Source: Cyanidioschyzon merolae
Lineage: Eukaryota
Length of the DNA: 64,000 nucleotides
NCBI GenBank assembly: GCA_000091205.1
Contig: AP006483.2
Strand: one strand, 5' to 3'
The translations under genes and the position numbers were made by a program. Of this stretch, positions 5,144 through 64,000 are shown piece by piece. The notes beneath the pieces are model-generated. The model had not been told where the DNA came from and ran no database searches. It saw only the letters and a program-made list of their open reading frames with translations. How positions within the stretch are numbered: position 1 is the stretch's first letter; every line of letters begins with the position of its first letter.

Positions 5144-8100
5144 CTGCAACTGGAAACTCGACATGCCCAGCACGATGAACCAATGTGAACGGGCTACCGC
5201 TGCCAAACGTCTCATGGATTCCGGGATGCATGCTTATCATGTTGCCTTTACGCTCGTTGTTCGAGTCGACAAATCAGCGTTTTCCAGACAACGCCCCGTA
5301 AAGTTGAACGCGGCGCCTGCATGTTTGCTTTGTGACAGGCATAAACATACTGGCTTGTCGCGTTTCCAGTCATAGAGCGTTCCATGCGTGAGAAGGATAG
5401 ATGCATACCGCTAGCGCTATCGTGCGCCATATATGGAAGGCTTTGAAACTTGTTTTCATGCGGGACAAGGGCCACAGTGGACAGGAAATCCGCTGTACCC
5501 ATTTTGGCGTACCTCTGCTGATGATCGTTCAATCATGCGGCACTGTTGTTGCTTGGCGCGTTGCGCTGGAATGGTTTGCAGCACTCTAAATGACTCTTTC
5601 AGAAGCCCGACGAAATACATCTGCAGATTGCGCAACACACATTGCTACGGACGCTCGCCCTTTCTGGATAAGGACAACACGTATATTCCTGGCTCTGAGC
5701 CCCCGGGACCCAGGAACGAGTAACAGCGCATTACCGTACCCGCTGTTCCCTGATCGCATGTGAGATTGAAATGGGATACTGGATTGCGCGCTTTGTTCTT
5801 GCCTTTCGATGTTTTCCGATTTTTCGATGTATAGCTTCGACGTTCGAAGTGCAGAATTAAAGGTCTACGGATTCGCTTGCAGTGTTTGGGTTTCTCGCTC
5901 GTCTTTTCGGTGTCGCTCCTTCGATTCTTTGCGTCAGGGATTCGATTCGCCACTGGAATCAGGATGATTCGCAGCGTCATTGAATAAAAGGTGCGTAAAG
6001 AATCGATGTCATTATCCAATTCACACGAGCAAGCCTCGCCGCTTCTCCATCCCTACGAGAATACTGCTAAAATCACGCATTCGTCAAGTTTTCAATCTTT
6101 ATGTCTCAGGCAACTGGTGGACGTAGCATTTCGCGCCACTGGATAGCCGACGAAAAATACTCGATGTCCGCTCTTGACGACTTCTTCGGACGCTCACGCC
6201 GAATGTTCGCTGATCTTCTCACGTCACATAATAGATTCCGTTCAATGCACGATTCATCATCTCTTTGGTACGAACGAGGAATCGGCATTCCACAGCCGCA
6301 CAATATCTCTCTTGAAATATGTTCCTAGAGTCTCGCATCTCTTCTGTTTGCAGGAGACTGGATCTTGGACTTTGGCTTCAGTCGTCGCTGAAATCATTTA
6401 TACTCTAAAGTACATTACTCCGCTGCACAAAGAGAATGTAGACGGATCAATGTTCCGCGCATTGTTCTCCATCCTGGATTTTCCTTTCGGTACTTGTTTC
6501 ATAATGCGCATCATCGCGTTCCACAAATCCTCTGTCGAATAGAACGTTGCAAACTTGCATGTCCAGCAGCCGGAATGCTCACTGAGAGCATCGCCTAGAA
6601 GATGCTCGTTTGCATAGGGAATGTCGCCGCTCGCGGGAACGACGAAGGGCGTCAATGAGGATCTTCAGTTCCCCTCGAAAGTGTGCACCGAGCAGTGATG
6701 TAAGCGTACACGCGCTACAGAGTAGCATTAGGAGAAGGAGGTGCAATGGAAGTATGAGAACGCTTTATCACAGCCAAAAGTCTTTGCCGTGAAGGACCCA
6801 GCGTGGATGTATTTGAAGAAGATGAAAATGGCTCGCGGAGCGTAGATTGCACTATTCGCCTGTGCATGGAATGTGTTGACAGCGGTCGGGAGCAGCGAAA
6901 TAGTGACTTTAACGCTTACATCAACATCCTTTGACCACAAAAAACGGAGATGGAGTTACAGGAGAGACCGGCAAGTTGAAAGCCAGATATAATAGACAAG
7001 GAACAGAAGTATTAGTAGAAAAAGCCGGCCAAATCTGGTGTCGATTACAAGATGAAGAGACCCAGACTTATGTAAATACGTACACGCTAGATGACTGGTT
7101 CTGCTCCTTTTGATTCTGAAAGGGGTATAGTTAGGGAGCTGCAATAGGCTGGCGATAGCTCTCGAGAATAGACTATTTGGACAAATTTGTAGATCAGAAT
7201 ATTTCACGCCTCAACATGTCTTCTGTGCTCAGTCGGCGCGCAGTCGACTTCTTGTAGCCCGAATATTGCCCAAGTTATCGTAATGCAGAATGATTCGACA
7301 AGTCGATCGGCAGCAGCTGCTGGCAAAGTCTGGTTGGTATCGAGCGCATTCGCTGGTATGCTCAGTGCCCTGTAGCTGAGACGACCTTCGCGTTAGCAGA
7401 AGAGTGGTAAGAAAGGTCCTCTTTTTATCCAATGTGCAGACTTTTGTGATCAGAATCCTAGTTTATCCATCGGAATGAGCATAAAATTGCGTTTCGGAGA
7501 TGCACCGCGTAGGCGCGTAGTTTGGAACGCAGACTACTGCCCACAAACCGATCCGAATACGACAATACTGCGGCAATCTCTGCCAGAAACGCTGCCGACA
7601 AAATTTATACATGGAATGGAAAGAGAACAGTACTGTATGGATCAACGAGCGCTTTCCAAAACCGTTTGGCGGCAAATATTAGAGAGCATTGTCGATGATA
7701 AATTGGCTCTTCTACAGCGTATGGTTGACGCTTCAGACCGGTAGATTTTGGCGACGAAGCACATCGTTCGCAATGACGACATCCCGTGAAGTGGTTCATT
7801 ATTATCTGACTCGATCGCATTATTGGCTGATGATCAGACATTCGCAGAGCACCTGGCAACCGTGCTCCGTACTTCAAAGGAAAAACTGCGGTGCGCTTTC
7901 GCTTTACGAATTTCAAAAGACGGCAATTTGCTCATGAATTCAGACACGTAGGCAGCGAATGCCAGGGAAGCTATTGAGCACCAGCGGTCGACCAGAGCGT
8001 CCATGGCTGTAAAGACTGGTGGGATGAGCGCACCATTTCGCTTGTGCAACGCTAAATTTGTGGTATGCTTGCCAGTTCGAGGACGACATTTAGCTGCTGA

Positions 8101-13809: not shown

Positions 13810-15377
13810 ATCAGGGAACAGGTAGCTCCATAGAGTCTTTCAACTTTTGTTTCTGTTCCAATCAGGTTGCGGTGTTTAGCAGGATATCTACATGACGATG
13901 CGATATACCGTATAGATCGTAGATGAATTCCACGTATGATATATACTTTTCTGATCAGTGCCAGCAGGACTGCATCCTTCCTTCGGGTCAGTCATGCCAC
14001 AGTGCTCAGATGGTTGAGGCACACTGATAGAAACAGGTACATGCGCTCCGTGCCGAAAACCGACATTCTCACAGTGTGTTTGCGGTCAATGGCAGAAAGC
14101 GACCCATCGTTCACGTTATGGAGGGTGAACGTGACAACAGTAGCCACCACGGGCGTCTCTGTTTCTCAACATCTTGTTCATGTTGCCCTGAAAACACTAG
14201 GATTCAGTTGCAAAGGAAATAACAAATTTCACGTACGGTCATCTTCTGTCAAAGTACCTACGACAGCGTTCATGGAACGTCGCAAGCGTTATGAGGCAAA
14301 GGACGTCGATTTGTTTTGTCATTCGATGAGGTTTGTTTCGGACGAAACGGTCGGAGCGTATGCGGGTATTCGTGGAGCGGCGCGCCCGTTCTTCGCACGA
14401 TCCAACTCGAGAAGAACGACGACATCTTTAGCTGTTCTAGGTGCAGTGGATTCATTTGGCGGCCTCGGATTCGCACGTAGTCAAGGCTTGTACAACAGCA
14501 TTCACTTTATCGAATCATTGAAGACTTCCTCGACGTCTGGTGACGTCCTTTGGATTAAGCAACATGGCATTGCACCATTTCTTTTTGCATTCATACTTTT
14601 GCCGATTCTGTCCGAGAAAAGCTGCATTTCATTCCTCCGTTCTATCTTTGTTTCAACCCAATCGAAGGAATGTTTTCTATCGTGAAGCGTAAGGATGGCT
14701 CCACTGGGCGAATCGCTGAAGCGTTCTGCAGACGGTGACACACTGGGAGCATATATCGTATTCCTTCGGCAAGTCTATCCTTTCCGGGAAAATCCTCCAC
14801 TAAGAACATAAAGAAGCGTGTTCATTTCAAGAATTAAAAAATCCAAGGAACAGGCATGCACGTGAAATTCGAGGATCCTGGAGGTCCGGTGTCGTTGGGT
14901 TCGAAAAAACGAAAACCTCCTCTTCTCGCCGACCGTCGAGCAAAGAAGAGAAATTTACGAGGAAGAAGAAGAGGGTACATAGGCGAGAAAAGCTATTTAA
15001 TTTACAGGATGATGACGAGACTCTAATGACACAGAGGGCTCGAGTCCTAGCAATCCTTGCAAAGGTGAGTCCACCAGATGCAATGCACGCTAGTAGTTCG
15101 CAAACTGCGACTTCTACGCCGCCGTCAACATTCGACAATATGCGGTGCTGAAGACGAGGCCCGAGAAGCTTTCGCGACGCGACTTTGTATGGCAGCCTCT
15201 CAGACTCGAAGTTTTCAGGGAGAAGCTGAAGCCGATAACAGGTGGCGGGCAAAAAAGGCTGGGAGGCGTCTGCGGCTCGGTATTATTTTACCCCACGGTC
15301 GCGGAACAGTCTCGCTCCTTTGAACTTTCTGCATGCGTATCTCTAGACGGGGTACACTTGCTCCCAGAGCACACGTT
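13810..15377 (+). mobile_element. Copy C of a ~1.5 kb TnpB/Fanzor-like (OMEGA-type RuvC nuclease) element; degenerate, with frameshifts and stops.
   Basis: Nucleotide homology over ~1.5 kb to reverse-complemented copy D (55193-56720). It is also homologous to the 3' parts of copies A and B. Its frames encode ...KFEDPGGPVSLGSKKRKPP... (RuvC-II-like) and ...DFYAAVNIRQYAVLKTRPEKL (RuvC-III DxNAAxNI at 15109-15135). Confidence 0.6.
13936..14685 (+). pseudogene. N-terminal reading frame (249 aa) of the TnpB-like protein of copy C. It includes a candidate degenerate RuvC-I (SGDVLWIKQHG).
   Basis: Its protein aligns with the D-copy ORF 55926-56375(-) (VSQHLVHVALK/VSQQLVHIVLK, ETVGAYAGIR/ETFGAYMGIR) and with A-copy ORF 63608-63877(-). 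It is interrupted by stops before the RuvC-II/III segment. Confidence 0.45.
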
Positions 15378-16772
15378 GATGACCTGGAAGCTGCCTATGG
15401 GCAACGTAAGGATGTGTGTCAGATGTGTGCGGGCAGTGTGGGGTATGGACCCGCCCCAGCTGCCCTGCAGGCGGTTTCAAGGCTTGAGGAACACCTAGGA
15501 GGTGGCTACGGTCCAGTCGCCGGTGAGTCCGCTTTATTGGCGAATCTTAGGGAAAAACTTTTCCTGCACAATGGGATAGACGTTGACGCACAGCGCGCAG
15601 CAGTTCTTGTAACTGCCGGTGCGAACCAGGCGTTTGTGAACGTGCTACTCGCGGTCGCCGATAGCGGCGACGCGGTTATTCTGTTTGCCCCCTACTACTT
15701 CTCACACTACTCGGCTGCATTATTTGCCGGCTTAAGACCGATAGTTCTGAACTCGAATTCCCACGAAAGCGTTGCCGGCGCTCTGCAATATTACTCCGAG
15801 AACTTGCTTCATTCTGAGGTGCCCAGCGTTGAAACGGTGCGAGCTGTGGTTGTTTGCACGCCCTGCAATCCTACAGGCAGCGTCTTAGATAACGCCGAGT
15901 TATGGAAGATTGCTCATATATGCGAAGCTCATGATTGGTGGTTAATCATAGATGAAGCTTATGAGCACTTCGATTTCGAGATGCAACTTTTGGAGCGGGA
16001 CGGAGAACTGACCCTGACCTCGATAGTGAGCCCGTCGTGTCTCACGGGGCTACCGCAGCGAATTCGTCGTCCGTACCTTATGCATAATCGGTCAATTCAT
16101 ATCTTTTCTATGTCGAAGTCATTCGGCATGGCGGGATACAGAGTGGGCTATATCCTTTGTCCGCAAACGGCCCCTATTCAAGATGGAGCGGATCTGTTCG
16201 ATGCACTCGTGCGGGTGAACGACACGATCGTGACCCATGCATCCCGCCAGAGCCAACTTCTGGCTCTCTGTGTGCTTCGGGATCCCGCCTGCATTAGCAC
16301 GCTCCAGTCCAGGCGACTAAGAGTGCTTCTTTACGTACGGGAGCTCTACCAGTTCGCTTTCAAGATGGTCAGAGCCGGACTGATCGAGCTCACACCATCG
16401 ATGATGGAGGTACTCAGAACATGCCAAAGAAACGGGCGCCCCTTTCGCATTGGCGCCTTTTACCTTTTCTGCCGTGCGTTACCGAAGAGGAATGGCTCCA
16501 CGCGTGTTGCTCGAGCTAGTGATCTCGAGTTGTGCCATTTTCTCGCAGATTCATATCGAGTGCTTGTTGCACCGGGGAGCATCTTTGGCACGGATGCGCG
16601 CGAATGTTGGATACGCGTTTCTGTCGGCGCTTGTTGTTGTAATGATATCCATGGTTTGCGAGATGCGCTTCGTCGTTTAGCAGCCGGTATCGCTGCGTTT
16701 CAAGAGCAGAAATTAGCGCGCAAGGTGAGTAGCGTCGATAACGACAACTTGGTGGTATCTACAACGTTTTGA
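15333..16772 (+). CDS. Class I/II pyridoxal-phosphate-dependent aminotransferase; substrate specificity not assignable.
   Basis: Fold-type I aminotransferase motifs: YGPVAGESALLANLRE, VLVTAGANQAF...GDAVILFAPYYFSH, CNPTGSV, IIDEAYEHF and SMSKSFGMAGYRVGYI (PLP-lysine SxSK motif). The first ~14 codons overlap the 3' end of element C, so the true start may be Met31 (about 15423). Confidence 0.8.
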   Translation: MRISRRGTLAPRAHVDDLEAAYGQRKDVCQMCAGSVGYGPAPAALQAVSRLEEHLGGGYGPVAGESALLANLREKLFLHNGIDVDAQRAAVLVTAGANQAFVNVLLAVADSGDAVILFAPYYFSHYSAALFAGLRPIVLNSNSHESVAGALQYYSENLLHSEVPSVETVRAVVVCTPCNPTGSVLDNAELWKIAHICEAHDWWLIIDEAYEHFDFEMQLLERDGELTLTSIVSPSCLTGLPQRIRRPYLMHNRSIHIFSMSKSFGMAGYRVGYILCPQTAPIQDGADLFDALVRVNDTIVTHASRQSQLLALCVLRDPACISTLQSRRLRVLLYVRELYQFAFKMVRAGLIELTPSMMEVLRTCQRNGRPFRIGAFYLFCRALPKRNGSTRVARASDLELCHFLADSYRVLVAPGSIFGTDARECWIRVSVGACCCNDIHGLRDALRRLAAGIAAFQEQKLARKVSSVDNDNLVVSTTF

Positions 16773-17856
16773 TCGTGTCTGCTGCTAAGACCCGTAGCGG
16801 TAAAGATCTGGTCAAGAGCATGATCGCACAAGACAAGCCTCGCATGACCAATATCCGACTGCGGCTACTCGATCGAAAGAGCAGTAAATAAGCACATTTC
16901 TGAAAAAAAAGCACAGAATGCGCGGGCTCGACGCGAAACCGAGTTAGACGGCAGTGTAACTCGGGACGCAGCCTAATTTACTTCCAAGGTATAGTGCGTA
17001 CGCTTTCAGCCATGATTATTCCGGAGCAAAAATGAAGCATGTGAAATGCGCACAAGCTGAGGCAGCCGCTCTGTTGGCTAAGCGCTTCCAAGCTATCTAG
17101 CTTCGCACAAGATCTGGAATTTTTCTCCATTAAGGCTCGCCTTAGCTCTATGCTCGAGTCTTGTAGCAAGAACTCTGCGCTTCGGACATAGAACGAGCTG
17201 ACGAAACAAACACAACCTGTTGGCATTCAGAACTGAAATGCAAGACACATGTACTCGCTTTGTTCCTGCCTCGAGATTTGCACGGCCTTGCTTTAAATAA
17301 AAAAGCTCGACTTCCGCAAGAAGTAATATGATCTTACGGACACTTATATTGTTTTAAGATTCCGGATGTCTTTTTTGAGTAGCTCTCTTGGCGCTTTTCC
17401 GCTGGAAGTGTAACGTCAATGGAATCAATACCGTTCGCGACGATCTCGGACAAAAAACGTCTATCAAGCAACCGATGTCAATATTCATTGCATACGTACA
17501 AGCACCAAGTTCTCTCGTTTCATTACTTGGAGCATGCTCAATCCAAGCATGCTTGAGGTTTTCGACTTTCTGCATGGGTGGAACTCTTCGGGAACAGCAA
17601 TGCGCGCTGCTGGATTGACAACGAACATAACCCGACGTCATCCCTTGCCGATTTCTGCACACGCCCATGCCAAAAGTTCACTTAATTTGTCATATCATAT
17701 CATAGGTTCCGTTTGAAAGACGAATCCTCCTCTCTCTGTCTATAGAAGCAATAGAATTTGACTTCGGCAGCAGGGTTCCTCCCGTGGGATATGCTTCCAG
17801 TCGCTCTCGTCTCTGTTCTTTGCATTTTCAAGTGCCTTGAAGTCGGACGTGAGTCA

Positions 17857-18498
17857 TTACGGGCATCGTTTCCAGTGGACATGCGTCACCGCCTTGTACG
17901 AAGGAAGCGCGGAAGACTCGAAATATCTCGATTTGTCTCGGGCGTGGATTCTCCTTCTACTATTTGTTTCATGATGGAAGAAATCGCGTTCTAGAAATCC
18001 TCTGTCAAATGCGACAACGTGCGCTCGCATGTGCGGAGGATGGAGTAATGGCTTGGAGATGGTGAAAAAACAAACGCGTGATTGTAGCATATGGCATCGA
18101 GCGCAGAGACGGAGAAGAGCATCGGCGGGGAGAGTTCTGTATTGGTCAAGTGTATGTACCTGGCAATGAAACAAGCGCTGACGCATCACAGGGCAGTTCG
18201 CAACGGACGTGTGATGCACCTGCGGGAGCCCATGACCGAAGTTAAGTGTCAACGTTGCAAACGGGGCAACAAGTCTGTACACGAACAAGATGAAAATGAC
18301 GAGCGATGTGTATATCGCGGCTTCCGCCCGGGCACAAAACGCATCGACAACAGCCTGAAGCCGCAAAAGTGGGACTTGGGCGCTGTTATCAACATCATTC
18401 GAGTGGAGACAACGGAGCTGGAGTGGCAGGAGAGGCCGGCGTGTTGAAAGCGAGACAAAATTGAAAGGAAAAGAGAGCAGCAAGAGAAAAGCTGGCAC
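17857..18498 (-). CDS. P-family small-ORF locus, copy P2. Paralogous to P1 (27127-27495) and P3 (49105-49528). No ATG at the conserved start position (GTG instead), so it may be a pseudogene.
   Basis: Conserved block ...LQLRCLHSNDVDNSAQV...ARAEAAIYTSLVIFILFVYRLVAPF...HHTSV is shared with P1 and P3 at protein level and at nucleotide level (~65-70 % identity). The 5' flank is also shared. Confidence 0.25.
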   Translation of the reverse strand: MPAFLLLLSFPFNFVSLSTRRPLLPLQLRCLHSNDVDNSAQVPLLRLQAVVDAFCARAEAAIYTSLVIFILFVYRLVAPFATLTLNFGHGLPQVHHTSVANCPVMRQRLFHCQVHTLDQYRTLPADALLRLCARCHMLQSRVCFFTISKPLLHPPHMRAHVVAFDRGFLERDFFHHETNSRRRIHARDKSRYFESSALPSYKAVTHVHWKRCP

Positions 18499-18499
18499 G

Positions 18500-19060
18500 C
18501 GCTAGTTTTCATGATAGTGAGAATCAAACCAAAAATTCAGAGGGTCCACCGGAATCAATAACTGGACCCCCTCAACTTAATTCTGATATGGGTGCGTTTT
18601 CGTTTAGTTCAAAGAGTGCTTGGCCCCAATCGCTTCGGCCTCGTCGCTCGCACAGCGTGAAGTCGCGAAACATGAAAGCGTTTCCCCCTTTTTTCATGAC
18701 AGTTGGAACCAGACCAAAAAATCTAGAGTGTCCACCGGAATCAATAACTGGACCCCCTCAACTTAATTCTGATATGGGTGCGTTTTCGTTTAGTTCAAAG
18801 AGTGCTTGGCCCAAACGCTTCGGCCTCGTCGCTCGCACAGCGTTAAGTCGCGAAACATAAACGCGTTTCCCCCTTTTTTCATGACAGTGGGAACCAGACC
18901 AAAAAATCTAGAGTGTCCATCGGAATCAATAACTGGACCCTCTCGAATTAATTCTGATATGGGTGCGTTTTCGCTTAGTTCAAAGAGTGCTTAGCCCCAA
19001 ATGCATCAGCTTCGTCGCTCGCACAGCGTGATGACGCGCATTACATTCGGGCTTGCTCAT
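18500..19060. repeat. Tandem array of three units, ~184-186 bp each.
   Basis: The 20-mer ccaccggaatcaataactgg recurs at ~18546, 18732 and 18916 (third copy ccatcgg...). Units are ~90 % identical. The first unit is continuous with the 5' flank of P2. Confidence 0.85.
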
Positions 19061-26591: not shown

Positions 26592-27126
26592 CCCCTACTA
26601 CCAAACCTGACACTTCGTCTCAGCAGCCACGACCTACTGCAGGCACTCAGCGAATAACGTTGTCTGTACTCGAAACAACGACAGGCTTCCTCGTCTTTAC
26701 AGAGAAACGCTCGCAGTCTTTACCGAGATGCGAACGCGTGTCAAAGCGTTGCAGACCAGGAATGTCACGTCAAAGTGGACGCCTCCCGGATCCTGACGAA
26801 ACTGTACTTTATGGTTTATAAAGGCCAACGGTGGAGAGCGGCCCTGCGGGCCCTCGACGTGCCCGCTCGGCGCATGATGTGCGTGACTGATTTCCGCGCT
26901 GGGTTACGCTCGCACTGGAAGCCGGTCATGTTGGTGTTCTATTTGCAGTTCCCAAGTGACAGCTCGAAAGCTCAGGCCCGGTGAAGTCACAGGCAGCAGA
27001 GCCAATTCGTGGGGATTTAAGGAACTACATTCTAGGTGCATGTGTGTCATAATGAAATAAAACGTGACAATTACTTAACTCGGGTGTGAGCACGAAATTT
27101 CGGAGTCCTTCCCGTAACCATGATCA

Positions 27127-27495
27127 CATGCCTTTGCGGGTTTTTTTCTTAAACAGCTTCCTTAGCTTTTCTTCTATCCGGATTTCAATACATTGGTCGA
27201 TAAACTCTCTCCAGCTCCGTTGTCATCAGTTGAAGGATGTTGATGGCAGTGCACAAGTTGCGATTTCGGCGATGACATGTGGCATCAACGCAGCTCATGC
27301 ACAGGCGGAATTTGCGATTGACGCTTCGCTAACCATTTCCATCTCCTTCGTAAATAGAGACTGTGTGTCCTTTGCAGAAGTGATGCTTGGCGGCGGTCAG
27401 GCGTTCGCAAACATCCACGACACTTCCTCCTCTGAGCGCAGGCCTGTGACACGTCAGGGCTTGCTTCATCATTCGGTACACGCCATTGTTGGTTA
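27127..27495 (+). CDS. P-family small ORF, copy P1 (~122 aa from ATG). Hydrophobic N-terminus, Cys-containing.
   Basis: MPLRVFFLNSFLSFSSIRISIHWSINSLQLRCHQLKDVDGSAQV...AQAEFAIDASLTISISFVNRDCVSF...HDTSSSE aligns position-for-position with P2 and P3. Confidence 0.3.
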
Positions 27496-29626
27496 GAGAG
27501 GGTTCTCGTCGACGCTTTCCTCCGTTCTCGCGCCCAGTATGTACCCTACGTTCAGAGGCGACTCCGCAGGCGACTACATTGTCCGCTGGACACTGAATCG
27601 CATGCTGTTCTATTCAGTGCACCATCGTCCGCGTCCTAGCACACTCGTCGTTTTCTGCGCACCCTTACCAAAAAATACCTCCGTTAGTGTGACCGGCATC
27701 AAGGCACCTTTCAAACTCGTGAGCATTTTTTGTAGCATGTTTCACTCAATGGCAAGAGTGCGTACAGGACTTTTGGGACGCTCTTGTCTTGCGTTCGCAT
27801 GCTCGTCATACAATTCTTTCAAATGTCTCCTTTCGATGGGATGAAGATGACGAGCGTGCGAGAGCAGCATACGAGTGCAGCTGGAAGCCGCAGGGTCCGA
27901 GACTCGTTCTCCACAGCGCCGTCGGCTGCCACAGGGTGGTCGGACTTTACTTCGGATCTCACTGAAGCAAACGGGTACACGTTCACTCTCGCTGGGTCCA
28001 GGCAGATGCAGATCGCACGGGGAAGCAAGTTCGCGAGAGCGTGGATCTGTTTTGATCCTCGTTCATCTTCGTATTTCCCCTTCCGAGCAGATTTGCGTTT
28101 GAGCTCTGAGATCGTCGTGAATCGTGTACGACGTTCGTGGTTGACGACGGTGAATACTGTCGTGCCATCGATGCCGATGGAGAAGAGTATGCCTCGCCTC
28201 CGTCGTGTGAACATCTCCTTCCTTCTTTTTTTTCCTTCTCATTCGCATATTTGTTTGTGTTGCACCGCTTTTCGTTCCTCTCGCGGTGCATGAACGCCTC
28301 CGAATCTCCAGGCGAAAGGAGCATATTTCCCTTCATGAACCTCATGGACAGAATCGGTCCAAATCGTTCTCGATGGATTTCGTTCTGTCCATCGTACGTT
28401 TCTGGGCGGCCTTGTTCGTGGGCATCCTCCATACCGAAACAAAAAAGGCGTGAATCGAAGCGCAGGTGCGAACGATAGATACATGCGTTCGGAAAAGGAG
28501 ATAATCTCATCCGATCTGGCACAATGAGACTGCACTAAAGATGCAGAAGCAGCATCGCGTCCGGAGGCCGGTTCCTAGCAGGCTGCAGAACCAACCTCTT
28601 CTTGTCGTCTCCGACCTCAATAAATATTCGACGTTCGCGCATCAAGCTCTCTATTCTCCGTGTCGATGGATGTCTGTGAAGAACCGGTCATGAAGAGATC
28701 TTTCGAGTTACCAAGGCTGGTGATCGAGTGGTCGAACTTTCGCCTCCACGTCATCGAGTCGTTCATGCATCGGTGAAGATGAACGCTCACATGGCTCAGC
28801 GTCGCCACTATTTTTTTTGACCACGCACTTTTTTGTGAAATCAAAGCCGGTTTGACTCACCAAGCGAGTAAGGGCCTCGACGACCGCAAGATCGCTCCGC
28901 TAGGGAATCGAGTACGCCTGGCGTCGATGAAAGCACTGAAACCAGGAACTGTAACCGGTAAATGCTCGAGAACACTGGGGACACGACAGGCCGCCTATGT
29001 CAACAGCGCCTGTATGAAGATCCCCTCTTTCGGACTGTAGTCGACGCGTTCGAAGCACGCGTTCTGTTTCGTGAGGTGAGCGCGTTGCTGGAGTGTAGAG
29101 AAAAGAACTGCGAATTCACCTACGCGGGCGCGATGTCTCGGCTATTGAAAGTACGTTCCGATGTATCCCATTTGCGGCTGCTCTGTTATAGATCAGCGAT
29201 GAGCGCAGCTTCTCGTCCGGAAGCATACCAAATTGATGAGCTTCGTCCAGGAAAGCACAACGTCGGAGATTAACGGCATTCTCGGGGAGCAGTACACGCC
29301 TCTATTCGTGGTACCAGGATTTGTATGTTGCTCTTATGCTGTTGAATTTCCTGCCAGACCGGGTGGGCAGGGGATGTTTGCCTCTTTAAGTAAACATGCT
29401 ACATATATTCATTCTTTCTGCCTTGTTCATATCTCCTCCTCATGGCTCTTTTGCAATCCACCTTCGGCAAAAGGAAACGAATTGCGCAAATTAAGCGCTG
29501 ACGAGTTATCAACAGATGTATTTGATGTACTGAATCATTCCTTCACGTGTCCGGAGCCATTATCGATCGGGTTGAAACGCGGGAAATGTGCTGGAATGCA
29601 CAAAACGAGTCATCCTCTATACTCTG

Positions 29627-30442
29627 CTCGTTTCGGAGCAGAAGCGGTTCATGGCACGGCATAGTGTCCCTGATGAAGCAAGGACCAGTAGAAAAATCCA
29701 TGCTAGAGAAATACGCCGAGGAACTGCGATCCGTCTACGCTCCCATCGTGCACACCTCCGGTGATGAACGCTCAGATCCAGGCGATCGCTGCAATGACTC
29801 GACGCCGTGTCCGGTACCTGTTGTCATGCAAGCGGAAGAGACGAGAGCGTCTGGGACCACATTCCTGTCAGAGATAAAATGCTGCAGCCGATTTTTGTTT
29901 CGACGATGCGAACCAAGGGTCGATGATGCGCCACTCAAACGAAATCCATTACCTGATGTGAAACGTTCAGCCAAGCTCCCGCGTGAGGTCTTGAGAGAGT
30001 CGTCAGCGTACGAGGTTGAGTTTTTTCCATCGTCAATGTACCGCCGCGAATTGCTGCGCGTTCCCAAGCTACACTGGCATGGAACGATCGAGAGCTTGAA
30101 GCATGCGTGACAAGCGCATGCTACACGTAAGGAAAGCAGGGGGATGGAGGCTTCCATGAATGAATTTTGACACTGGTATCGGCTATTTTACGAACGCGTG
30201 TTCCAGGGCGCCGCGGAACATCTCGATTCGCATGACTTATCGATTACCAGCCGCATAGCGTCGAAGAATCCACCTCGACAAGACGACAGGGAACCCTAAA
30301 ACTGCCTATGAATCCGTGCGCCGTTTCTGCTGCATTTCGAATGTGGATGCTGTATATCTGGAAAAGCTCGGGAAACAAAGTGCAAGGCAGGAGCCAGGCG
30401 CACATCAACGTCCCATTTTAACCTGACATCGGTGCAGATTGC
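29627..30442 (+). repeat. Direct repeat, copy 1 (816 bp), immediately 3' of RPS2.
   Basis: ~99 % identical to 32350-33162, at a constant offset of ~2720-2723 bp. It carries identical ORFs on both strands (29547-30110 + / 29735-30157 -, versus 32387-32833 + / 32458-32880 -). Confidence 0.9.
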
Positions 30443-31454: not shown

Positions 31455-32295
31455 GATCTTATGCACGAGTACTTGCTCGCTTAGAACACAGCAAATCCTT
31501 TGCGAGACGTGTGCCCAGCGCGACGACGAAACGCGCCGTCCTTACTGTCCTTACTGTACTAAAAAGTACATTTAGATACAGTCTCCACGGGATACCTGAT
31601 CGTACGCTGATGGACCGCGACCTGCGCGATCGCTCGTCGCGCTCAGGGCGTCGTTTCGGCAGGCGCGGGGCGCTGGCGACCTGCGCGCGATCACACACGA
31701 AGCAGTGTAGCGGAAATCAGGTCCTTTTTGCAGACTCGAGCGTAAACATCCAAGTTTGCGTCTCTCCCACTGTCATCAATATAAATCTTTAGGAAACTAT
31801 CCTAAGGCTGCTGCTTTTTTTCTCCTTTTTATCTCAGGCTTTTAAAACGCCTGTACCGCCCGTACGTCCAGCTACGTTGGCAGTAATCGCGGGGCGTTGG
31901 GGCAGCGCTAGAGTTGCATTTCGCCGCTTCCGGCTGTTGTCGGTGTATTTCAAGCATGGCCCGACGTAGGGATCTACGCTTGGCTTGCTACTTACCTCTT
32001 TGTCACGTACAACCTCGATTTGAGCTTCGCAGCGGTGAAACTTGGCTGGGGTCTAGTGTTGCCATTTGTCCATTGAACCGCGCATGCTTCAGGCGATGAC
32101 CGTGAGGCGCGGAAGGCCCTGCTTCATGGCTCGTTACATGCCCGAAAGGGGCACGGATACCTCTTTTCGATGTCGTCCTTCGTTACAGCGCCCAGCGCCA
32201 TACCCTTCGATCAAAAGCATCTTTTAGACGATCGCTACGGCGTGCATGCTGCCGGCTGCGCGAGCAATCGAACGCTGTTCCGCTCGGCACGGGAT

Positions 32296-33162
32296 TTCTG
32301 GAACGGGATAGTGTCCCTGATGAAGCAAGAACCAGTAGAAAAATCCATGCTCGTTTCGGAGCAGAAGCGGTTCACGGCACGGCATCGTGTCCCTGATGAA
32401 GCAAGGACCAGTAGAAAAATCCATGCTAGAGAAATACGCCGAGGAACTGCGATCCGTCTACGCTCCCATCGTGCACACCTCCGGTGATGAACGCTCAGAT
32501 CCAGGCGATCGCTGCAATGACTCGACGCCGTGTCCGGTACCTGTTGTCATGCAAGCGGAAGAGACGAGAGCGTCTGGGACCACATTCCTGTCAGAGATAA
32601 AATGCTGCAGCCGATTTTTGTTTCGACGATGCGAACCAAGGGTCGATGATGCGCCACTCAAACGAAATCCATTACCTGATGTGAAACGTTCAGCCAAGCT
32701 CCCGCGTGAGGTCTTGAGAGAGTCGTCAGCGTACGAGGTTGAGTTTTTTCCATCGTCAATGCACCGCCGCGAATTGCTGCGCGTTCCCAAGCTACACTGG
32801 CATGGAACGATCGAGAGCTTGAAGCATGCGTGACAAGCGCATGCTACACGTAAGGAAAGCAGGGGGATGGAGGCTTCCATGAATGAATTTTGACACTGGT
32901 ATCGGCTATTTTACGAACGCGTGTTCCAGGGCGCCGCGGAACATCTCGATTCGCATGACTTATCGATTACCAGCCGCATAGCGTCGAAGAATCCACCTCG
33001 ACAAGAAGACAGAGAACCCTAAAACTGCCTATGAATCCGTGAGCCGTTTCTGCTGCATTTCGAATGTGGATGCTGTATATCTGGAAAAGCTCGGGAAACA
33101 AAGTGCAAGGCAGGAGCCAGGCGCACATCAACGTCCCGTTTTAACCTGACATCGGTGTTGCG
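32296..33162 (+). repeat. Direct repeat, copy 2 (867 bp), ~830 bp 5' of RPS2. It contains an extra ~55-80 bp internal tandem duplication at its left end (32296-32349 versus 32350-32440).
   Basis: See copy 1. The extra unit duplicates ggatagtgtccctgatgaagcaag(a/g)accagtagaaaaatccatgct. Confidence 0.9.
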
Positions 33163-46550: not shown

Positions 46551-49104
46551 CTCTTACCCAGCGGTCGCACAAGCGGCCCAGACGCTGTGCAGCTATCGCC
46601 ACATGAAACGAGATTCGCGCGCGCATGGACACGCGCGCTTTTCAAACTTGGACACTTGCGGACAAGAGAGATATTTCGTGTCTTCGGCATTCTCGACCAA
46701 ATAAGCGGCCGAAAGTGCACTTCAACGGGATGAAAAATTATTCTATTGGGAGTAGGGTAATAGATGCTCTGGCTTACCGAATAAATCTGCCGCTTGGCTT
46801 CTTCGTTGAGAGAAAGGACGATAAGCGGGACGACTTGACCCCAGGGGGAACTTCCCGTCGTCAACTTGAAGCTGGGCGCTTTCCACCAGGACCCTAATCG
46901 CGAACGAATAAAGTCCCTCGTCTCACATTGCTTTAACCTTGTCAACTGAAAGCAAGGGGAAGCCAGCACTCTCGCGAATTTCCGAAAACTGGGGAGTCGC
47001 TCTTCCGATTCTTGACCCAGTTCACGCGATGGACTGTTTCCCTCTTACGGACACAGAAAAGAATTGGTAAAAATTGTCAAGAATCGGACGATCGAAGGGC
47101 CAAAAATGCGCTCCCTTTCATGCATAGAAAAAATTGTACGCCTGAACCATCGTCTGGACCGTCAGGAAAGGTAGCGGCTTCGAGAGAGCCATCGGCGCAA
47201 GTCTCAGGTCGATCGTTGATGAATACGATCGTCTTTGACCCTTGATGAACGGAAGGACGAACCGGAGGGAAGGACCTGTGAGTTTCGACGATGGTGGATA
47301 TCTGTGGGATGACGCAGATGCTCGCGGCGCTTTCGATTCCGAAGGCGACGATCGCCACGAATCATATCCAGATGAATGCTGGGTGTCGCGTCGCTTATTA
47401 TATCAAGCTGAGGTACGGAAGCGAAATCAAGGGCGTCTAGAGAGAGGGATTGTTTGTGCCGTACGAACTCAAACGCTTGCGAGTCTCGACGTTCTCCTCT
47501 TCCAGAGCGATTGAGAAGGGAAACCTGGGATGAAATTGGCGCGCTGAAATCGCGGAATATCGAAGCAAGTACTTTCCGAAGGCTTCTCTCTGACTGAAGC
47601 ATCTATCCAAGACGCGTATGGCCGTTCCTCTGAACTATAAAATAATGGAAAAGAGTGCAAACACTTCGGATACCTGGATAGAATAGAATGGAACCGGCCC
47701 AATAGGTCAACGCCGCCCCAAGACGTTCTGTCTCCTGTCGACGAGGCGTCGTATCCCAATTCGTCATGTTCCTTCCAGTTACTTGATCATCATGGGCATT
47801 CTACGACGCCATGGTACCGTGGACATGAAAGAAAGCGGAAGGAAATTGAATGAGTAAATGTAGACTAAGGTTTACCAGGAAAACCTCAATATCAAAGCTG
47901 CTGAAACTATAAACAGTCTATTCGGTTTCCAGCTTCTCTCGGATGGACACGGTGCCAGTGTTCAACTGAGCGCACCGCTGCATATTTCGAGGGAAATGGG
48001 AGACGACAAAAGCTGTTCGCCTCTGAGGGATAAGCAACGTCTCATGGGCGAGAACCCGGGTCTTCCAGACGCGGTCACCTTGGTGGACACGAGTCCCGGA
48101 TAAGAAACGCGTCATTACACCAGCAGAAGACACGACCAGGAGGCGAGGTTCGTTTACAGCGCAGGGGAAACGCAAGAAAAAGAACCAATGGAGAGAGGAT
48201 GTGACTGCTCGTCTCCTCATTTGTGAACCGACGAAATCTGCTTTCAAAACCAACCTGAGAACGGATTTGCGTGTGTCCCCTGAACGACTGAGACAACGAG
48301 CTCGTTCTGGATACCAGTGAACGAGATGCTCCCGGTCACATGTTTGAAAAGGAACCAATGCCTGGGATCTGCACCCTCTTTTGGTACCGAATGGCGAAAA
48401 GACCGTCATCGAATTCTGGAACCAGGATGCAGGAGCCAAGCGTTCGATATCCCATCATAGATCCGGTGTGCGGAAATCGACCAAACAGAAGTTTGGGGGA
48501 ATGCCGGATATGCGTCTTGGAGACATCGATGAATGCGGACGTGCCTGACGTGTTCTTGTTGCGGAATTCACCTCACGAACATAAAAGAACGATGACGAGG
48601 GCTATTTCCAATGGAGAAAAGAATGCGAAAGAAAGAAGGTCCTATCTTGCTCAGATCCACAGAGTGCTGCACTGAAAGCGAATAAGGTGCAGGGGTCTGG
48701 GAGAATCTCCCAGCCGAGGCACCACGTGGAATTGTGACGACAAGGAATGCCACAACATTCCTGAGCTGCTACAGATCAGCGTGAGACGAGGCCAACATCG
48801 TGCACCATTTCGTCACGCGATAGGAAACAAAAAATCATCGCCCAGAGGCAAAAAGCCGCAGCATCCTTCCTGACCAAAAGACTCGAGGCGAGCGACAGGT
48901 TATGTACTCCTGGGTTTCTTATATAGTAAGCGTTATATTTTGATTCAGTCATACAGGAGCAAGTGAGATGACACGACTGCCCCACAATTTTCGATCATGC
49001 CAGAATGCTCAGCGCAACTCAGTTCGACCTGCGTTAGAACAAAACGGAGACGGACCCACTTGGTTGACTCGGGCGTCCACTCAAAGGTTTCGATTTCTTC
49101 CGAA

Positions 49105-49528
49105 AATCATCACCATGAACCTGTGGAGGTATCTCCTGAGACCGATTACCTTTCCGCTCTCTTATCTCTGGCTTGAAATACGTCGGTTTCTCCTTAGACT
49201 CATGCATCATTCATTGCAACGGAAGGCTGATTGCAGCGCGAACCTCCTGATTTCGCCGCTTCAAACAGACGGTGATGCGTCTCATGCTAGGGCAAAAATT
49301 GCGATCTACGCATCACTTTCCATCTCCATCTTCTCTGTATACAGCTTCTGTACGCCCTTCGCAGCAGCAGCACTAGAATGCAGTGCATTGTTCCAGTGTG
49401 CCGACTACATCTCGTCGTCCGCGCACCAACCTCTCTCGCGTGAACGCTTTTCTCGTTGCTCGCTACATGCCCTTGACAGTTGCAGAAGGATAACATTGAT
49501 ACTCGCATTCGCTTCGACTCCGGTGTGA
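49105..49528 (+). CDS. P-family small ORF, copy P3 (~140 aa from ATG).
   Basis: MNLWRYLLRPITFPLSYLWLEIRRFLLRLMHHSLQRKADCSANLL...ARAKIAIYASLSISIFSVYSFCTPF... aligns with P1 and P2. The conserved 5' flank (actcgggcgt...catcaccatgaacc) matches the P1 flank. Confidence 0.3.
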
Positions 49529-49843
49529 TACCTGAATAACATATGGTTTCTCTGAACGTTCGCCTTGGCGAGTACGCTATCCGCTTCGCGCGCAGGCCTT
49601 CGGTGTTCCATTCGATCAAGGATTTGCGCAACGCGATGCTTCTTACGATGACCCAGGTACCGCGAGCAACATCCAGGCTGTAAACCAAGCGACCCAGTTT
49701 TGGTCTATCTGCGGCCACTTCGTCCGAAGCGGTAATGCACGCTCCACGAGCAGTGATTACTACGATGACGAAAGTCCAAGTCCGAGACCCCATTCCACGG
49801 AAACAGGAAAATGGGTCTCTCCGGGACCATCTCTCGAGAGGGG

Positions 49844-49997
49844 TATCACGCTGCTGTTGAATGCCGTTTCGTCGATACACACCAAGGGCGGATCTTGTAG
49901 CTTTCGAACAGAACAGATTATATCACGCTGCTGTTGAATGCCGTTTCGTCGATACACACCAAGGGCGGATCTTGTAGCTTTCGAACAGAACAGATTA
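49844..49997. repeat. Perfect tandem duplication, 2 x 77 bp.
   Basis: tatcacgctgctgttgaatgccgtttcgtcgatacacaccaagggcggatcttgtagctttcgaacagaacagattat occurs twice with no mismatch. Confidence 0.9.
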
Positions 49998-50941
49998 TTT
50001 GGCATGAGAGGCCCTGTGAGCCTTCTGCAACAATTTGTGAACCAGGCGTCAAGGGAACGCCTCGCGTTTTCTGTCCCTCGTGGGTCTAGCGGCACGACAT
50101 GCTGCGTTCACCAGGTGATATGAAAGATGGAAAACTTGAAGAATGCATGATTTGCGCATGCTGCACGCAAGGAACCGAGAAGATAAAATCCTTGTACATT
50201 TTCAGTGGATAATGATTTCGATTAGGGCACGAACCCGTATTCGAGGGCGTGGTGAATCATGCTGTATTCCGCGGACATAACGCATTCCAATGGACGATTT
50301 GAAAGAGCGCCGCTCTGAGTAGACGACCGAGAATCCTGGAAACGCGTACAACTCTGTAATCTCTTATTGCAATGAATGGAAAATCGAGTCCGTGTATCTA
50401 ACGAGGTTCGCAAAAATCGAAAAGCAAGAACATCACAGGCATTCCAGAGCTCCAGTCTGAAACGGATGCAGCGCTCGAGATCTGATCAGCTTGCTTGTCG
50501 TACCCTTGATCTACAGCGCGTCTGAGGTGGCTTGCATCAAAGTTTTCCACATGCCGAGCTCCTGCTTGTCAAGGAGAATCGTCGGCCATTCGAAGCGTCC
50601 GAGTGCAGCGCCTCATCCTCTGTGCGTATGGCTGTGTCTCTACGTGCTGGTTCTTGTTGCCATATATCGACAACGACAGTGAAGCTCGTCGAACACAACA
50701 CCTCTGGTGACGGCAATGACGACAAATGAAGGTGAACCTTTCAAAGAAGTTAGCTGCAGGGAAGCAGCAGCATGGGAACGGCTCTCCAGGTGGTCCAGTA
50801 CTTGCCGGGGCGCGGGTGACGCCCAGTGACACCGTCATAGCGGAAATACCTCACCAGTTCAAGCTTCAGACCGAGTTGCAGTCAATCAGTTCGCTTTGGG
50901 TGCATTTATCCGAGTTGGAGTTTCGGTTTTTTTTCCAGTTT

Positions 50942-60764: not shown

Positions 60765-61908
60765 CCGCAGCCGTCTCTACGAAAAGAAAACAATCCTTTT
60801 CTTGGCAGCGAAACGAGTCCTCTACAAAACGCCGCGCTCGCCGCAGCACACCAAAATCCAAGCAGCAGCTCGCAGCACACGCCTAAAACACACCGGAAAA
60901 CAGGAAATCAATGTCAACAGGGTATGCACGAAGCACGATGGAAATAGATCCTGCAAACCCGTGCCGAAAAGTGCGACCACAGCTCTCGGGCTCTGCAGCT
61001 GGCAAGCAACCCGAGGTAGCGGTGCTGGCGGCCGTCGGCCGGTATGCAACTTCACCGCCTCAGCGATGCAGGTAGATCGGCAGCAGCGATGGCGCTCGCG
61101 CCGTTGAGGGTGCCCGCGCGCGCCCGCATCGGATGCGCGTGCCGCAGGTGCCGCGTGAGATCGCCACGCCGAGGCGCGTGCGCGCGCGCCCTGGGAGATG
61201 CCGGCTGATTTCGCGTTTCTCCATGAGCAGGTTTCCGACAGAGCAGGGGTACCAGATGATGTGATGGATCGCGGCGCTCGGGCGAGCATCTGTCTTTCTA
61301 GATACCTCCAAGTTCTATGATTTGTGCTTGCTCGTAAAGAGAATGGTTATTTTTTGCGGCCCATTGTTCGCTGAGCTTGTCCGGTTTGGTGATCGGCGGT
61401 ATGCGAAACCGGGTCAGATGAACACGGAGCAGTGGACAGCTCGTTATGTTGTTGCGTTGAGATTTGTTTGCGTTCGTTTTTTGGGTGTGCAGCCGCGGTA
61501 GTACAAGAGCGGCAATGGGGGCTTACGGATTGGTACGTGGTTTGAAGATTCCTGGGTGTCGTTTCCGAGAGGTTGCATCGATGCTTTTCTGCTGGGATTC
61601 GGCACGGCGTCGGAATCAAGATCATTCGCGATGCCCTCGAAAAAGAGTTCGTCAAATAAGCGGTACCAGTATCCAATTTATAAGTGCAAACTTCAATTCT
61701 GATGCTTTCCGGATGTAAAGCATGGTCCAATCTTGCATTCTGCGAGTTCTCGACCTCTCTGGTACAAGGCAACTCGGATTCGCAGCCATTCGCACAGCTC
61801 GATCGACGCGGCGAAAAGCCCGAGGTCGACCCCTGCAGGCCTCTGCAGGTGCTCCTGCTGAAAGCGCACTGAACTCGTCACGGCAAATCATCGATTTCGT
61901 TTGGAAGA

Positions 61909-62046
61909 CGAATTCTACTGCTTTTACAGTTATTGACGATGCTGTACTCCACATCGGCGTGGTACCTCTCACAGGGACGAATTCTACTGCTTTTCCAGTT
62001 ATTGACGATGCTGTACTCCACATCAGCGTGGTACCTCTCACAGGAT
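61909..62046. repeat. Tandem duplication, 2 x 69 bp (~96 % identical). In-frame within ORF 61722-62597(+).
   Basis: cgaattctactgctttt(a/c)cagttattgacgatgctgtactccacatc(g/a)gcgtggtacctctcacagg occurs twice. Confidence 0.85.
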
Positions 62047-62677
62047 ATGCATTCAGAAGCTTTCGCCTCTTGTATTTGCATAGAGAAAGGTATTGGACGC
62101 GGACTCGAATCATCGGAGCGAACGCTTCCAGCGGAGCATGCGTCGCCGCTTTGTACCGAGGGAGCGTAACAAGATCGGAAATTTCGCGACTTGATCTGCA
62201 GTCTGGATTCTCTTTCTGGTACTTGTCTCGTCATGGGCAGTATCGCTTTGCAACAATCCTTATTCGAATGGAACAGCGTGGCCTTGCGCATGGAGCAGAA
62301 AAAGTCCTCGACGAGTGCAGCATCCAGAGGAATACCGCTATGGTCAGGTACGACACCTCGTGCGGAATCCTCGGAAGGCATCGAGCAAACTCTGGTTTGC
62401 CAGTCAAGGGCATATATCTAGCTATGAAAGAAGGGTTCACGTGCCACAGGTCGGCGCCCGGACGTACAGATGAGGTGCAACTATGGGAAACCTTACCAGA
62501 GCCAGGTGCCGCCGCTCCGATAGGCACGCCGAGCCTCTATACGAAGGATATGAAAAAGGCAAGCGAAGCGGAGAGTGTAACTACCGCCTCTGCATGAAAT
62601 GTGTGCGCACAGCTGAAAGCGGCGAAATCATGACTTTAATCCTGCAACCAACATTCTCCGACTGCTGACTGCGGAGC

Positions 62678-64000
62678 TGGAGGAACAGTTGCGACCGGAG
62701 AATTTACAGCCGGAGATGTGCTCAGTGGAGGCGAAACGTTTCGCAATCCTAGAGTGCGAATGTATATGCGCAACTTCAGACGGCTCACAGCTTTTTTTCG
62801 ACCGCCCCCCTGGTATCAATTTCAGCTTCTCCTTGTACACTTTTAGCCTGAGAGGCTGCTCCACAAAGATGGCTCGCGTCAGCTCCTGGGGTCTCGTCTT
62901 CAGCACCGCGAATCGTCTGATATTGATGGCAGCATTGAAGTCTCGGATCACGGACTCCATGCGTTTCTTGCCGCTGTTTAAAAAAACTAATCCAATTAGT
63001 ACTCGTGCTCCTGCCCTCTTTGCCACTGCAGTTTCGTCATCGTCCCGTCGGGCGACCACCTTTTCTCGCCTATCTCTACGCTTCTTCTTCTCTTTGATCT
63101 TCGTCGCCTGCTCTTTTTCTTTCGGTGGTCGCCGAGAAGAGGATTTTTCGATTCTTTTCATGCAGCCGGCAATGACGGCCCTGCAGGATCCCCAACTTGA
63201 CTGTCCCTACTTTTCCCTTGGGATTTTTATGTTCAAAATTGAACGCACTTCGAGCTGGTCTGCTGGAAACCGCGAAAACGCATTTCATTCCACGCACGTG
63301 GGCGTAATACACAATTGAGTCCAACGACTGTCATCGAGGAGGGCTCGTCCAGCTTCTCTCTCGATAACTTGCCTCGTCAGGCGGCAGGTTGCAGGAGTTC
63401 CAGATGCAAGGCTGCCAGGTGTCCCCATTCGTTTGGAATTTTCGATGAATTCTTCGTGCGCCAACTCATCTGGTGCACTGGACAGAATATGGAACATGGC
63501 TTGATCGAAGAATCAGAAACGTGCGCACAGGCTTTCCCGAGCACCTTGAGATGTTGCCGCGCATCGTCGGCGATTGGAACCTGTGAAGCGCCCGTTGCCA
63601 AAAAGCATCAATTCGGGGAAAGAAACTCATCTCCAACCGACCTGGATAGATAGAGAAGAAAACGTTTTCTGTGAGCGTGAATCTCGGCTTGAGGAATCTC
63701 GTGGCTGCCGAGGTACTTGGCAATCAAGAGGACGGAGCCAAAGAACGCAACGGAAACGAGACGAAGGCGCCGAACATTTCCCTGACTTGGTATCAACGAG
63801 TCGGCCATGCTGGACGCTTCAAGAGATGCCAACGACAGGAATGACGGTTTCAGGACTATTACTGAACCGCTGCGCACCCTGTCGAGCAGAGACGATCGCG
63901 TTGTTTGCTTTATTCAGGGCGTACAAGAGACCGCGCTTGGGTAGCCATCGGTTTCTGTTGTACGGAGACAAGACGCGGGCATTCGTCAACTTGTGCAATG
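62678..64000 (-). mobile_element. Copy A of the TnpB/Fanzor-like element; its 5' portion is truncated by the window end.
   Basis: ORF 62628-63161(-) contains the best-preserved RuvC-III, ...VIRDFNAAINIRRFAVLKTRPQEL (62919-62946). Upstream ORFs 63285-63877(-) match the N-terminal parts of C and D (SLASLEASSMADSLIPSQG versus SLAVLGAVDSFGGLGFARSQG). Confidence 0.6.

Follow-up and report, generated by a model that had tools for sequence, protein, structure and literature searches.

Fanzor1 proteins are recognized by a published signature, D-X(125-275)-[TS][TS]-xx-C4 zinc finger-X(5-50)-RD (Bao and Jurka, 2013; PMC3627910), and mariner-type elements such as PUl-1 have a transposase gene followed by a Fanzor1 gene (PMC3627910). 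One Fanzor1 family, CMe-1A, has been reported in Cyanidioschyzon merolae; its element is 3169 bp long, occurs in ~150 copies that are ~80% identical to the consensus, has no terminal inverted repeats (TIRs) and is unclassified (PMC3627910). The analysis described here concerns another repeat family, termed P, in a stretch of 64,000 nucleotides of C. merolae DNA (contig AP006483.2 of assembly GCA_000091205.1), the whole of which is called the window below. The original prediction had described this family as three dispersed small cysteine-containing open reading frames (ORFs), P1, P2 and P3. We are highly confident that the P family instead consists of dead copies of a Tc1/mariner-IS630-type transposon with a DDE_3 transposase and a Fanzor1 gene, together with an internal-deletion derivative of that transposon, and that P1-P3 are antisense artefacts. 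This reading rests on the homology of the ancestral strand to both gene families, on the architecture of the one nearly complete copy, on the deletion structure of the short copies and on the absence of coding constraint.

Self-comparison of the window and a search with the copy near 62 kb identify six copies of the family and one duplicated fragment, which together make up ~14% of the window. Five of the copies are short, each ~1.3-1.4 kb with ~60% pairwise identity, and the P1 locus measures 3.4 kb. The short copies have unrelated flanks and lie in both orientations. The proposed homology of P1-P3 is well beyond chance, and only the proposed identity of 65-70% was too high: pairwise blastn of the three intervals gives 62% (392 bp, E 3e-31), 59% (440 bp, E 3e-20) and 61% (342 bp, E 2e-23), a range of 59-62%, and the mean column identity in a MAFFT alignment is 62%. 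The count of three members of ~550 bp gives way to six copies and a duplicated block, in units of 1.3-1.4 kb or, at P1, 3.4 kb. Past ~600 bp P1 diverges from P2 and P3, being part of the undeleted form.

Genes on the ancestral strand

Single copies are too decayed to be used alone, and the ancestral sequence was therefore represented by a stitched 388-aa majority consensus of the window copies, translated on the strand opposite P1-P3. The N-terminal part of this consensus ('...FVCIDETEF...GYAPRGSR...VIAAIASSGAC...') corresponds over residues 44-217 to the NCBIfam IS630 transposase (E 2.2e-11). The C-terminal part reads '...LVIVGYGTGRGN...VPVKGMYRAMKQAF...VMDVWEHLTAAKCHCCEGH...RNFRLCMKCVDNSRKRRNRDFSAAINIL', and the Fanzor motif residues kept in the consensus are '...VMDVWEHLTAAKCHCC...RLCMKC...NRDFSAAINIL'. 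Against Pfam PF07282 (OrfB_Zn_ribbon / Cas12f1-like_TNB) the C-terminus scores 22.8 bits (E 1.1e-4; gathering score 26.3); single decayed copies give no PF07282 match, and Pfam and NCBIfam scans of individual ORFs (P1-P3, antisense frames and the neighbouring repeats A1 and A2 described below) return nothing useful apart from a weak IS630 match for A1. Alignment with hhalign places consensus residues 1-220 on residues 1-212, from Met1, of a 317-aa DDE_3 (PF13358) transposase (probability 99.1, E 1.5e-18), and residues ~222-388 on residues ~495-667 of the intact protein P0119 (probability 99.8, E 1.8e-27).

An exhaustive HMMER search was performed against 1.84 billion representatives using a profile built solely from ORF fragments of the window plus five close hits. 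The 306 matches are mostly short decayed ORFs and include DDE_3 transposases over profile positions 45-185 and, over the C-terminal part, the intact proteins P0078, P0119 and P0128 (376-682 aa, E 7e-12 to 5e-9). A word-indexed protein search with the consensus alignment found only five decayed ORFs. All three intact proteins score above the PF07282 gathering threshold (32.7-34.9 bits). The intact relatives have invariant D413 (in DPG), E595, T599, C602, C605 and R643 and near-invariant C630, C633 and D644, which include two CxxC pairs and the RD dipeptide, and this motif set therefore matches the published Fanzor1 signature (PMC3627910). These nearest intact relatives are 35-41% identical to the window copies in the retained part and sit on environmental contigs. 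A tblastn search with P0119 matches every P copy, and the translation of 18088-18444 (+) is 35% identical to P0119 residues 564-665 (BLASTP, E 7e-11).

The fold was evaluated on the intact relative P0119 rather than on the window pseudogenes, which are tied to it by the hhalign match at E 1.8e-27. A Foldseek search with the AlphaFold2 model of P0119 (predicted local distance difference test score 72.4) ranks SpuFz first among PDB folds (E 1.3e-12), then PpFz and GtFz, and after these Fanzors come Cas12m, Cas12f and TnpB. From these sequence and fold matches, the ancestral strand is read as encoding an IS630/Tc1-mariner (DDE_3) transposase and then a Fanzor1 nuclease. The original prediction had pointed to an open antisense frame at 18091-18447 (+), containing CQRC...C, and had left the coding strand in doubt. 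That frame exists and was the key clue, being the zinc-ribbon/RuvC-III end of a Fanzor pseudogene, and the doubt was justified, as P1-P3 lie on the strand opposite the ancestral genes. Two simpler assignments were rejected: the whole antisense ORF is not a Fanzor/TnpB gene, its N-terminal half being a DDE_3 transposase, and the C-terminal extension is not the normal end of an IS630 transposase, which the P0119 matches and the full-length relic exclude.

The full-length relic and the short form

The copy at the P1 locus, read from 30434 to 27047 on the minus strand, retains both genes: a transposase pseudogene at ~30357->~29400 and a Fanzor1 pseudogene at ~29360/29165->27140. The Fanzor-family hidden Markov model (HMM) matches it in three segments, with model positions 66-450 at 29165->27945 (independent E-value, iE, 5e-22), 504-627 at 27730->27362 and 679-741 at 27322->27140, and the transposase HMM matches with positions 159-274 at 29855->29505 (iE 2e-9). 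A tblastn search with P0119 aligns its residues 511-679 at 27655->27155 (E 5e-12) and 342-423 at 28214->27966. Transposase HMM matches are present in every copy, and position 274 is reached only in this relic. The Fanzor1 C-terminal motif D-X(125-275)-[TS]-[TS]-X-X-C4-X(5-50)-RD is present in the family, and the region of the RuvC-I Asp is found only in the relic (HMM 66-450). Stops or frameshifts interrupt the sense strand of every P copy.

Each short copy aligns to the relic in two blocks (30434->~29650 and ~27550->27050) and lacks ~2 kb, a stretch that begins near codon 240 of the transposase and ends some two-thirds into Fanzor. The short form thus joins ~240 transposase codons to the last ~165 Fanzor codons. 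On the 5' side it keeps the leader and the N-terminal part of the transposase (helix-turn-helix domains and first catalytic Asp); on the 3' side, the Fanzor C-terminus, with its E-x-x-T-[ST]-x-x-C4 zinc ribbon and the RuvC-III motif 'NRDFxAAINI', is followed by ~130-150 bp of purine-rich 3' tail. In the copy at 18 kb, the transposase N-terminal remnant spans ~17414-17990, the Fanzor C-terminal remnant 17961-18447 (with the ORF at 18091-18447) and the tail 18448-~18586; the corresponding HMM matches lie at 17420-17888 for the transposase and 17964-18483 for the Fanzor family. The copy at 62 kb lacks the last ~100 bp of its 3' end, where it abuts a CMe-1A-derived fragment. The breakpoint follows the transposase segment 'GFSFWYLFHHGQHRVPQIL' and precedes the Fanzor sequence 'CRMEQRALACAAD...'. 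A junction at consensus residue ~220 was considered and dropped in favour of ~240, as the relic shows that 'GFFYW.LLHQGH' belongs to the transposase. The same junction occurs in all five short copies, and the deletion therefore preceded amplification.

Intact units of the same kind are found outside the window. P0152 (765 aa) is 43% identical to P0119. In five different contexts its gene shares the strand of a gene for a 317-aa DDE_3 transposase and lies 72 bp downstream of it, with TA at both ends. The shared sequence of identical intact relatives in four contexts gives way to differing flanks at TA followed by CAATCTTGTTA on one side and at TAACATAGGTG followed by TA on the other. Genomic context was read from the more distant P0152, the contigs of P0119, P0078 and P0128 being too short to include neighbours. 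The contigs with intact transposase and Fanzor units (L007-L012) are densely coding, with 43% or 56% G+C, and the neighbours include Peptidase_S74, 2OG-Fe(II) oxygenase, UvrD helicase, DNA_pol_A, Lipase_3, Skp1 and ATG8; on one contig (L008), two units that have diverged lie tail to tail. The hosts of these units may be giant viruses or protists.

In its complete form the element had both genes on one strand, a DDE_3 transposase closely followed by Fanzor1, a eukaryotic RNA-guided nuclease resembling TnpB and Cas12. Loss of ~2 kb produced the non-autonomous form. In the proposed history this form, with both ends kept, was presumably mobilized in trans by full-length copies and then amplified, and all copies would afterwards have decayed neutrally to ~60% pairwise identity. 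No intact Fanzor ORF with a 3' guide RNA (omega- or f-RNA) is present among the window copies, and no omega-RNA was identified. The last ~240 nt of the P copies show negligible conserved RNA structure (-2.9 kcal/mol, one covarying pair), and Rfam and tRNA scans found nothing. Judging from Fanzor biology, the 3' tail may once have been the right end of the element or an omega-RNA template.

Several younger rearrangements affect the copies. The segments 29625-30434 and 32348-33157 form an 810-bp block that is 99.1% identical, compared with ~60% among all other repeat copies. The block consists of the first 810 bp (5') of the short copy at 32 kb and the matching part of the full-length relic, brackets the uS5 gene (30627-31466, -), and ends on one side at the 5' end of the element and on the other at the deletion breakpoint. 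It looks like recent gene conversion or recombination of the full-length relic with the neighbouring short copy; the same arrangement is found in the metagenome contigs L001-L003. Young tandem duplications lie inside four of the six old, decayed copies, among them a perfect one at 49844-49998 (77 bp x2, 100%) and others at 61907-62044 (69 bp x2, 97%) and 32300-32427 (~76 bp x2, 92%). The duplicated units at 49 and 62 kb start at the same element position, near the first catalytic Asp of the transposase. The 185-bp unit repeated at the end of the copy at 18 kb contains GTCCACCGGAATCAATAACTGGACC, the 3' terminal motif of the element.

Coding constraint and rival explanations

One of two options in the original prediction was small secreted, effector-like proteins; P1-P3 would then be dispersed paralogues coding for secreted Cys-containing products with a conserved promoter or 5' untranslated region of their own. 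ORFs of 136-213 aa with hydrophobic N-termini do occur on the P strand, the majority consensus stays free of stops for ~330 codons in the P frame, and ~100-150 bp upstream of the ORFs is conserved, as had been predicted. The codon-position substitution check that had been suggested, when run on the window copies, reveals no period-3 pattern: throughout the unit, the three codon positions show the same column conservation, and over the 100-104 codons common to all copies the proportion of nonsynonymous differences (pN, 0.36-0.46; Nei-Gojobori) is close to the proportion of synonymous ones (pS, 0.41-0.60), with pN/pS of ~0.5-1.1 and the two strands indistinguishable. Coding constraint was therefore absent as the copies diverged. 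By coordinate arithmetic, P1 (27086...), P2 (...18498) and P3 (48968...) share their codon boundaries with the Fanzor frame of the opposite strand. Stops in such a codon-aligned antisense frame come only from the sense codons TTA, CTA and TCA, which number 27 per 1000 codons in window genes compared with 47 expected at random, and in the gene of an intact relative an in-phase antisense run of 279 codons, spanning codons 404-682, is already without stops. P1-P3 have no Pfam matches, the ORF is missing from the other copies of the repeat, and their start codons fall within a few columns of each other rather than in the single aligned column that had been described. The conserved flank is one end of a longer unit and runs on as 1.3-3.4 kb of transposon body. 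P1-P3 are shadow ORFs antisense to the Fanzor C-terminus, accidental frames on dead transposon copies, and their 'signal peptides' and 'conserved 5' flank' both come from the 3' tail, 61-71% purine in the P copies, read as its reverse complement. We give almost no credence to a family of genes for secreted proteins. The other option of the original prediction, a non-autonomous repeat with ORF-like composition, was essentially right. The repeat is not a miniature inverted-repeat transposable element (MITE), however: MITEs are shorter than ~800 bp and non-coding, with TIRs and target-site duplications (TSDs), and the P repeat is an internal-deletion derivative of 1.3-1.4 kb that is almost wholly made of gene remnants and has no detectable TIRs.

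The short copies could also be seen as encoding, now or formerly, a functional chimera of the DNA-binding part of the transposase and the zinc-ribbon/RuvC-III end of Fanzor, either domesticated or acting as a regulator of transposition. The junction common to all five copies and the 291-aa ORF that crosses it in frame at 62 kb are consistent with such a protein. An in-frame junction has a one-in-three chance of arising, however, and the fusion has neither RuvC-I nor the last catalytic residue of the transposase, so that neither enzyme could work; with the sense strand broken in every copy and no codon-position bias, a functional chimera is highly improbable. Somewhat less remote, and still quite unlikely, is that the transposase and Fanzor parts never formed one element, and that nested insertion or recombination joined unrelated fragments into a composite spread by segmental duplication. 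Chimeric Fanzor elements are described in the literature (PMC3627910), no TIRs or TSDs were found in the window copies, and the 99%-identical block at one pair of loci is typical of conversion or duplication. Yet the contiguous transposase->Fanzor arrangement is present in the window itself, intact relatives have the same two-gene unit in many contexts, and the unrelated flanks, both orientations and ~60% identity fit old dispersed insertions, not segmental duplications.

Some results weigh against descent from a Tc1/mariner-IS630 element with a Fanzor1 gene. The PF07282 match of the window consensus falls under the gathering score (22.8 against 26.3 bits), and neither the consensus profile nor P0119 gave a relevant match in sequence searches of the PDB. 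The position of the breakpoint near transposase residue ~240 is uncertain by ~20 codons, and the segment 'GFSFWYLFHHGQHRV' is assigned to different partners by hhalign and by the transposase and Fanzor HMMs, the relic favouring the transposase. A pN/pS below 1 in some pairs may reflect weak past constraint. Finally, the structured termini that had been proposed as a check were not found: inverted-repeat scans and flank alignment detected no convincing TIRs or TA duplications at the ends of the window copies, which are blurred by decay. The assignment to a Tc1/mariner-IS630 mechanism therefore rests on transposase homology and on the relatives, not on termini.

Neighbouring repeats and comparison with known Fanzor systems

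The window is eukaryotic DNA of ~54% G+C with few introns. Long, unbroken ORFs in it encode a condensin-II subunit, a RhoGEF, a KH/BBP protein, ribosomal protein uS5 and an aminotransferase, the last of which (15333-16769) is identical to XP_005535070.1 of C. merolae 10D. A 135-bp tandem repeat in two copies (93% identical) lies at 40220-40484, inside or beside a gene-dense region. The P copies and the neighbouring transposon-derived repeats are collected in the table.

Table. Repeat features of the window. Strands of P copies are those of the ancestral genes.
Feature	Coordinates	Strand	Remarks
Deletion derivative c6k	5758..7110	+	Transposase HMM 77-235 at 6078-6554 (iE 4.5e-24); Fanzor HMM 541-741 at 6533-7024 (iE 2.6e-9); two-block match to full-length relic
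Deletion derivative c18k	17333..18586	+	P2 ORF (17857-18498) on antisense strand; two-block alignment to full-length relic
Near full-length decayed parent (relic)	27047..30434	-	5' leader, transposase pseudogene, Fanzor1 pseudogene, 3' tail; P1 (27086-27496, +) antisense to Fanzor C-terminus
Deletion derivative c32k	31700..33157	-	Fanzor HMM 542-629 at 32286->32011 (iE 6.6e-15); two-block match to full-length relic
Deletion derivative c49k	49045..50453	-	P3 (48968-49528, +) antisense to Fanzor C-terminus and 3' tail
Deletion derivative c62k	61403..62717	+	Longest surviving sense ORF 61722-62597, 291 aa, in frame across transposase/Fanzor junction
185-bp tandem repeat	18506..19038		2.9 copies, 91% matches; last ~80-100 bp of c18k and adjacent flank, triplicated
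Repeat A1, decayed IS630/Tc1-like transposase gene	13868..14848	+	NCBIfam IS630 E 3.4e-6 (weak); transposase HMM matches
Second A1 copy	56656-55672	-	68% identity over 991 bp to first A1
Repeat A2, internally deleted CMe-1A copy	62734..63334	-	Without A1 part; CMe-1A consensus ~800-1073 joined to ~2809-3083 (~771-1073 joined to ~2809-3089 when taken together with the copy at 33500-34102)
A2 copy without A1 part	33500-34102	+	CMe-1A consensus ~771-1073 joined to ~2809-3089
Further A2 copy	14813-15323	+	Adjoins A1 copy
Further A2 copy	55306-55670	-	Adjoins A1 copy

Comparisons with CMe-1A were made by blastn with its consensus (PMC3627910, supplement 2) and by tblastn with the CMe-1 protein. The A2 repeats are 65-72% identical to the CMe-1A consensus over two blocks with an internal deletion, and CMe-1 matches them at E 1e-12 to 8e-21. 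This lineage differs from P, and its copy at 62734-63334 abuts the truncated 3' end of the P copy at 62 kb tail to tail. At both loci, 13868-15323 (+) and 56656-55306 (-), the A1 repeat is immediately followed by an internally deleted CMe-1A gene, and the junction is the same in the two; position 869 of the CMe-1A consensus, which precedes the CMe-1 start codon by 37 bp, corresponds to 14814. This arrangement suggests a similar descent of CMe-1A, from a Tc1/mariner-type element with two genes, transposase followed by Fanzor. Further remnants match the CMe-1A 5' region (41365-41476 and 61241-61429, to positions 75-188 and 22-214, a part that TE-N2_CMe has in common with CMe-1A), CMe-1 residues 518-554 (2094-2198) and, weakly, the DDE_3 transposase HMM (13019-13327 and 2559-2831, iE 9e-5 and 4e-3).

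The genome of C. merolae is known as compact and poor in transposable elements. The P family removes a false lead, as there is no effector-like gene family and the P ORFs should be masked in annotation as antisense shadow ORFs of transposon pseudogenes. It also means that a second Fanzor1 lineage, one linked with a Tc1/IS630 transposase, has left relics in C. merolae, and it offers a clean in-genome example of a two-gene transposase and Fanzor element degenerating into a non-autonomous form. The A1 repeats hint at the transposase partner of the unclassified CMe-1A family. A broader picture can be put forward only tentatively and is, taken as a whole, rather doubtful: that the window keeps both the full-length and the amplified deletion form of a Tc1/IS630-Fanzor1 lineage other than CMe-1A, that the environmental contigs of the relatives, some of them resembling those of giant viruses or protists, would fit viral transfer, and that CMe-1A likewise derives from a two-gene element. 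In kind, the P family is ordinary, a set of fossils of the known transposase and Fanzor1 type, and the view of how Fanzor systems work is unchanged by it.

Among described elements, PUl-1 and PUl-2 of Pythium ultimum and PGv-1 (PMC3627910) resemble P in having a mariner/IS630 transposase and then Fanzor1 on the same strand within ~3.4-3.8 kb. Fanzor1-carrying Tc1/mariner transposons and P have in common the Fanzor C-terminal D...[TS][TS]xxC4...RD and the occurrence of non-autonomous and chimeric derivatives, and intact relatives of the P family have the TA-flanked short inverted termini of such elements. Unlike these transposons, the P copies of the window are all pseudogenes at ~60% pairwise identity with unrecognizable TIRs and TSDs, and what was amplified is one particular form, with the two genes fused by an internal deletion of ~2 kb. 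The solved Fanzor1 structures SpuFz1 (PDB 8gkh), PpFz and GtFz match the P0119 model at E 1.3e-12 to 1.8e-5 with template modelling scores of ~0.45-0.56 over ~690 columns, whereas phmmer detects no pairwise sequence similarity between them and P0119; the window copies further differ from these proteins in keeping only the last ~165 residues (short copies) or a frameshifted full length (long copy). CMe-1A/CMe-1 and P share the same genome, the Fanzor1 class, a similar copy age and the RuvC-III motif 'NRDFNAAINI'. However, CMe-1 is without a clear C4 zinc ribbon, which the P lineage has, the P and CMe-1A consensus sequences share only a 29-nt DNA match at the RuvC-III motif (blastn), and the CMe-1 protein is 25% identical to P0119. 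From the restricted DNA match and the low protein identity it follows that P is a second, separate Fanzor1 lineage in C. merolae, beside CMe-1A.

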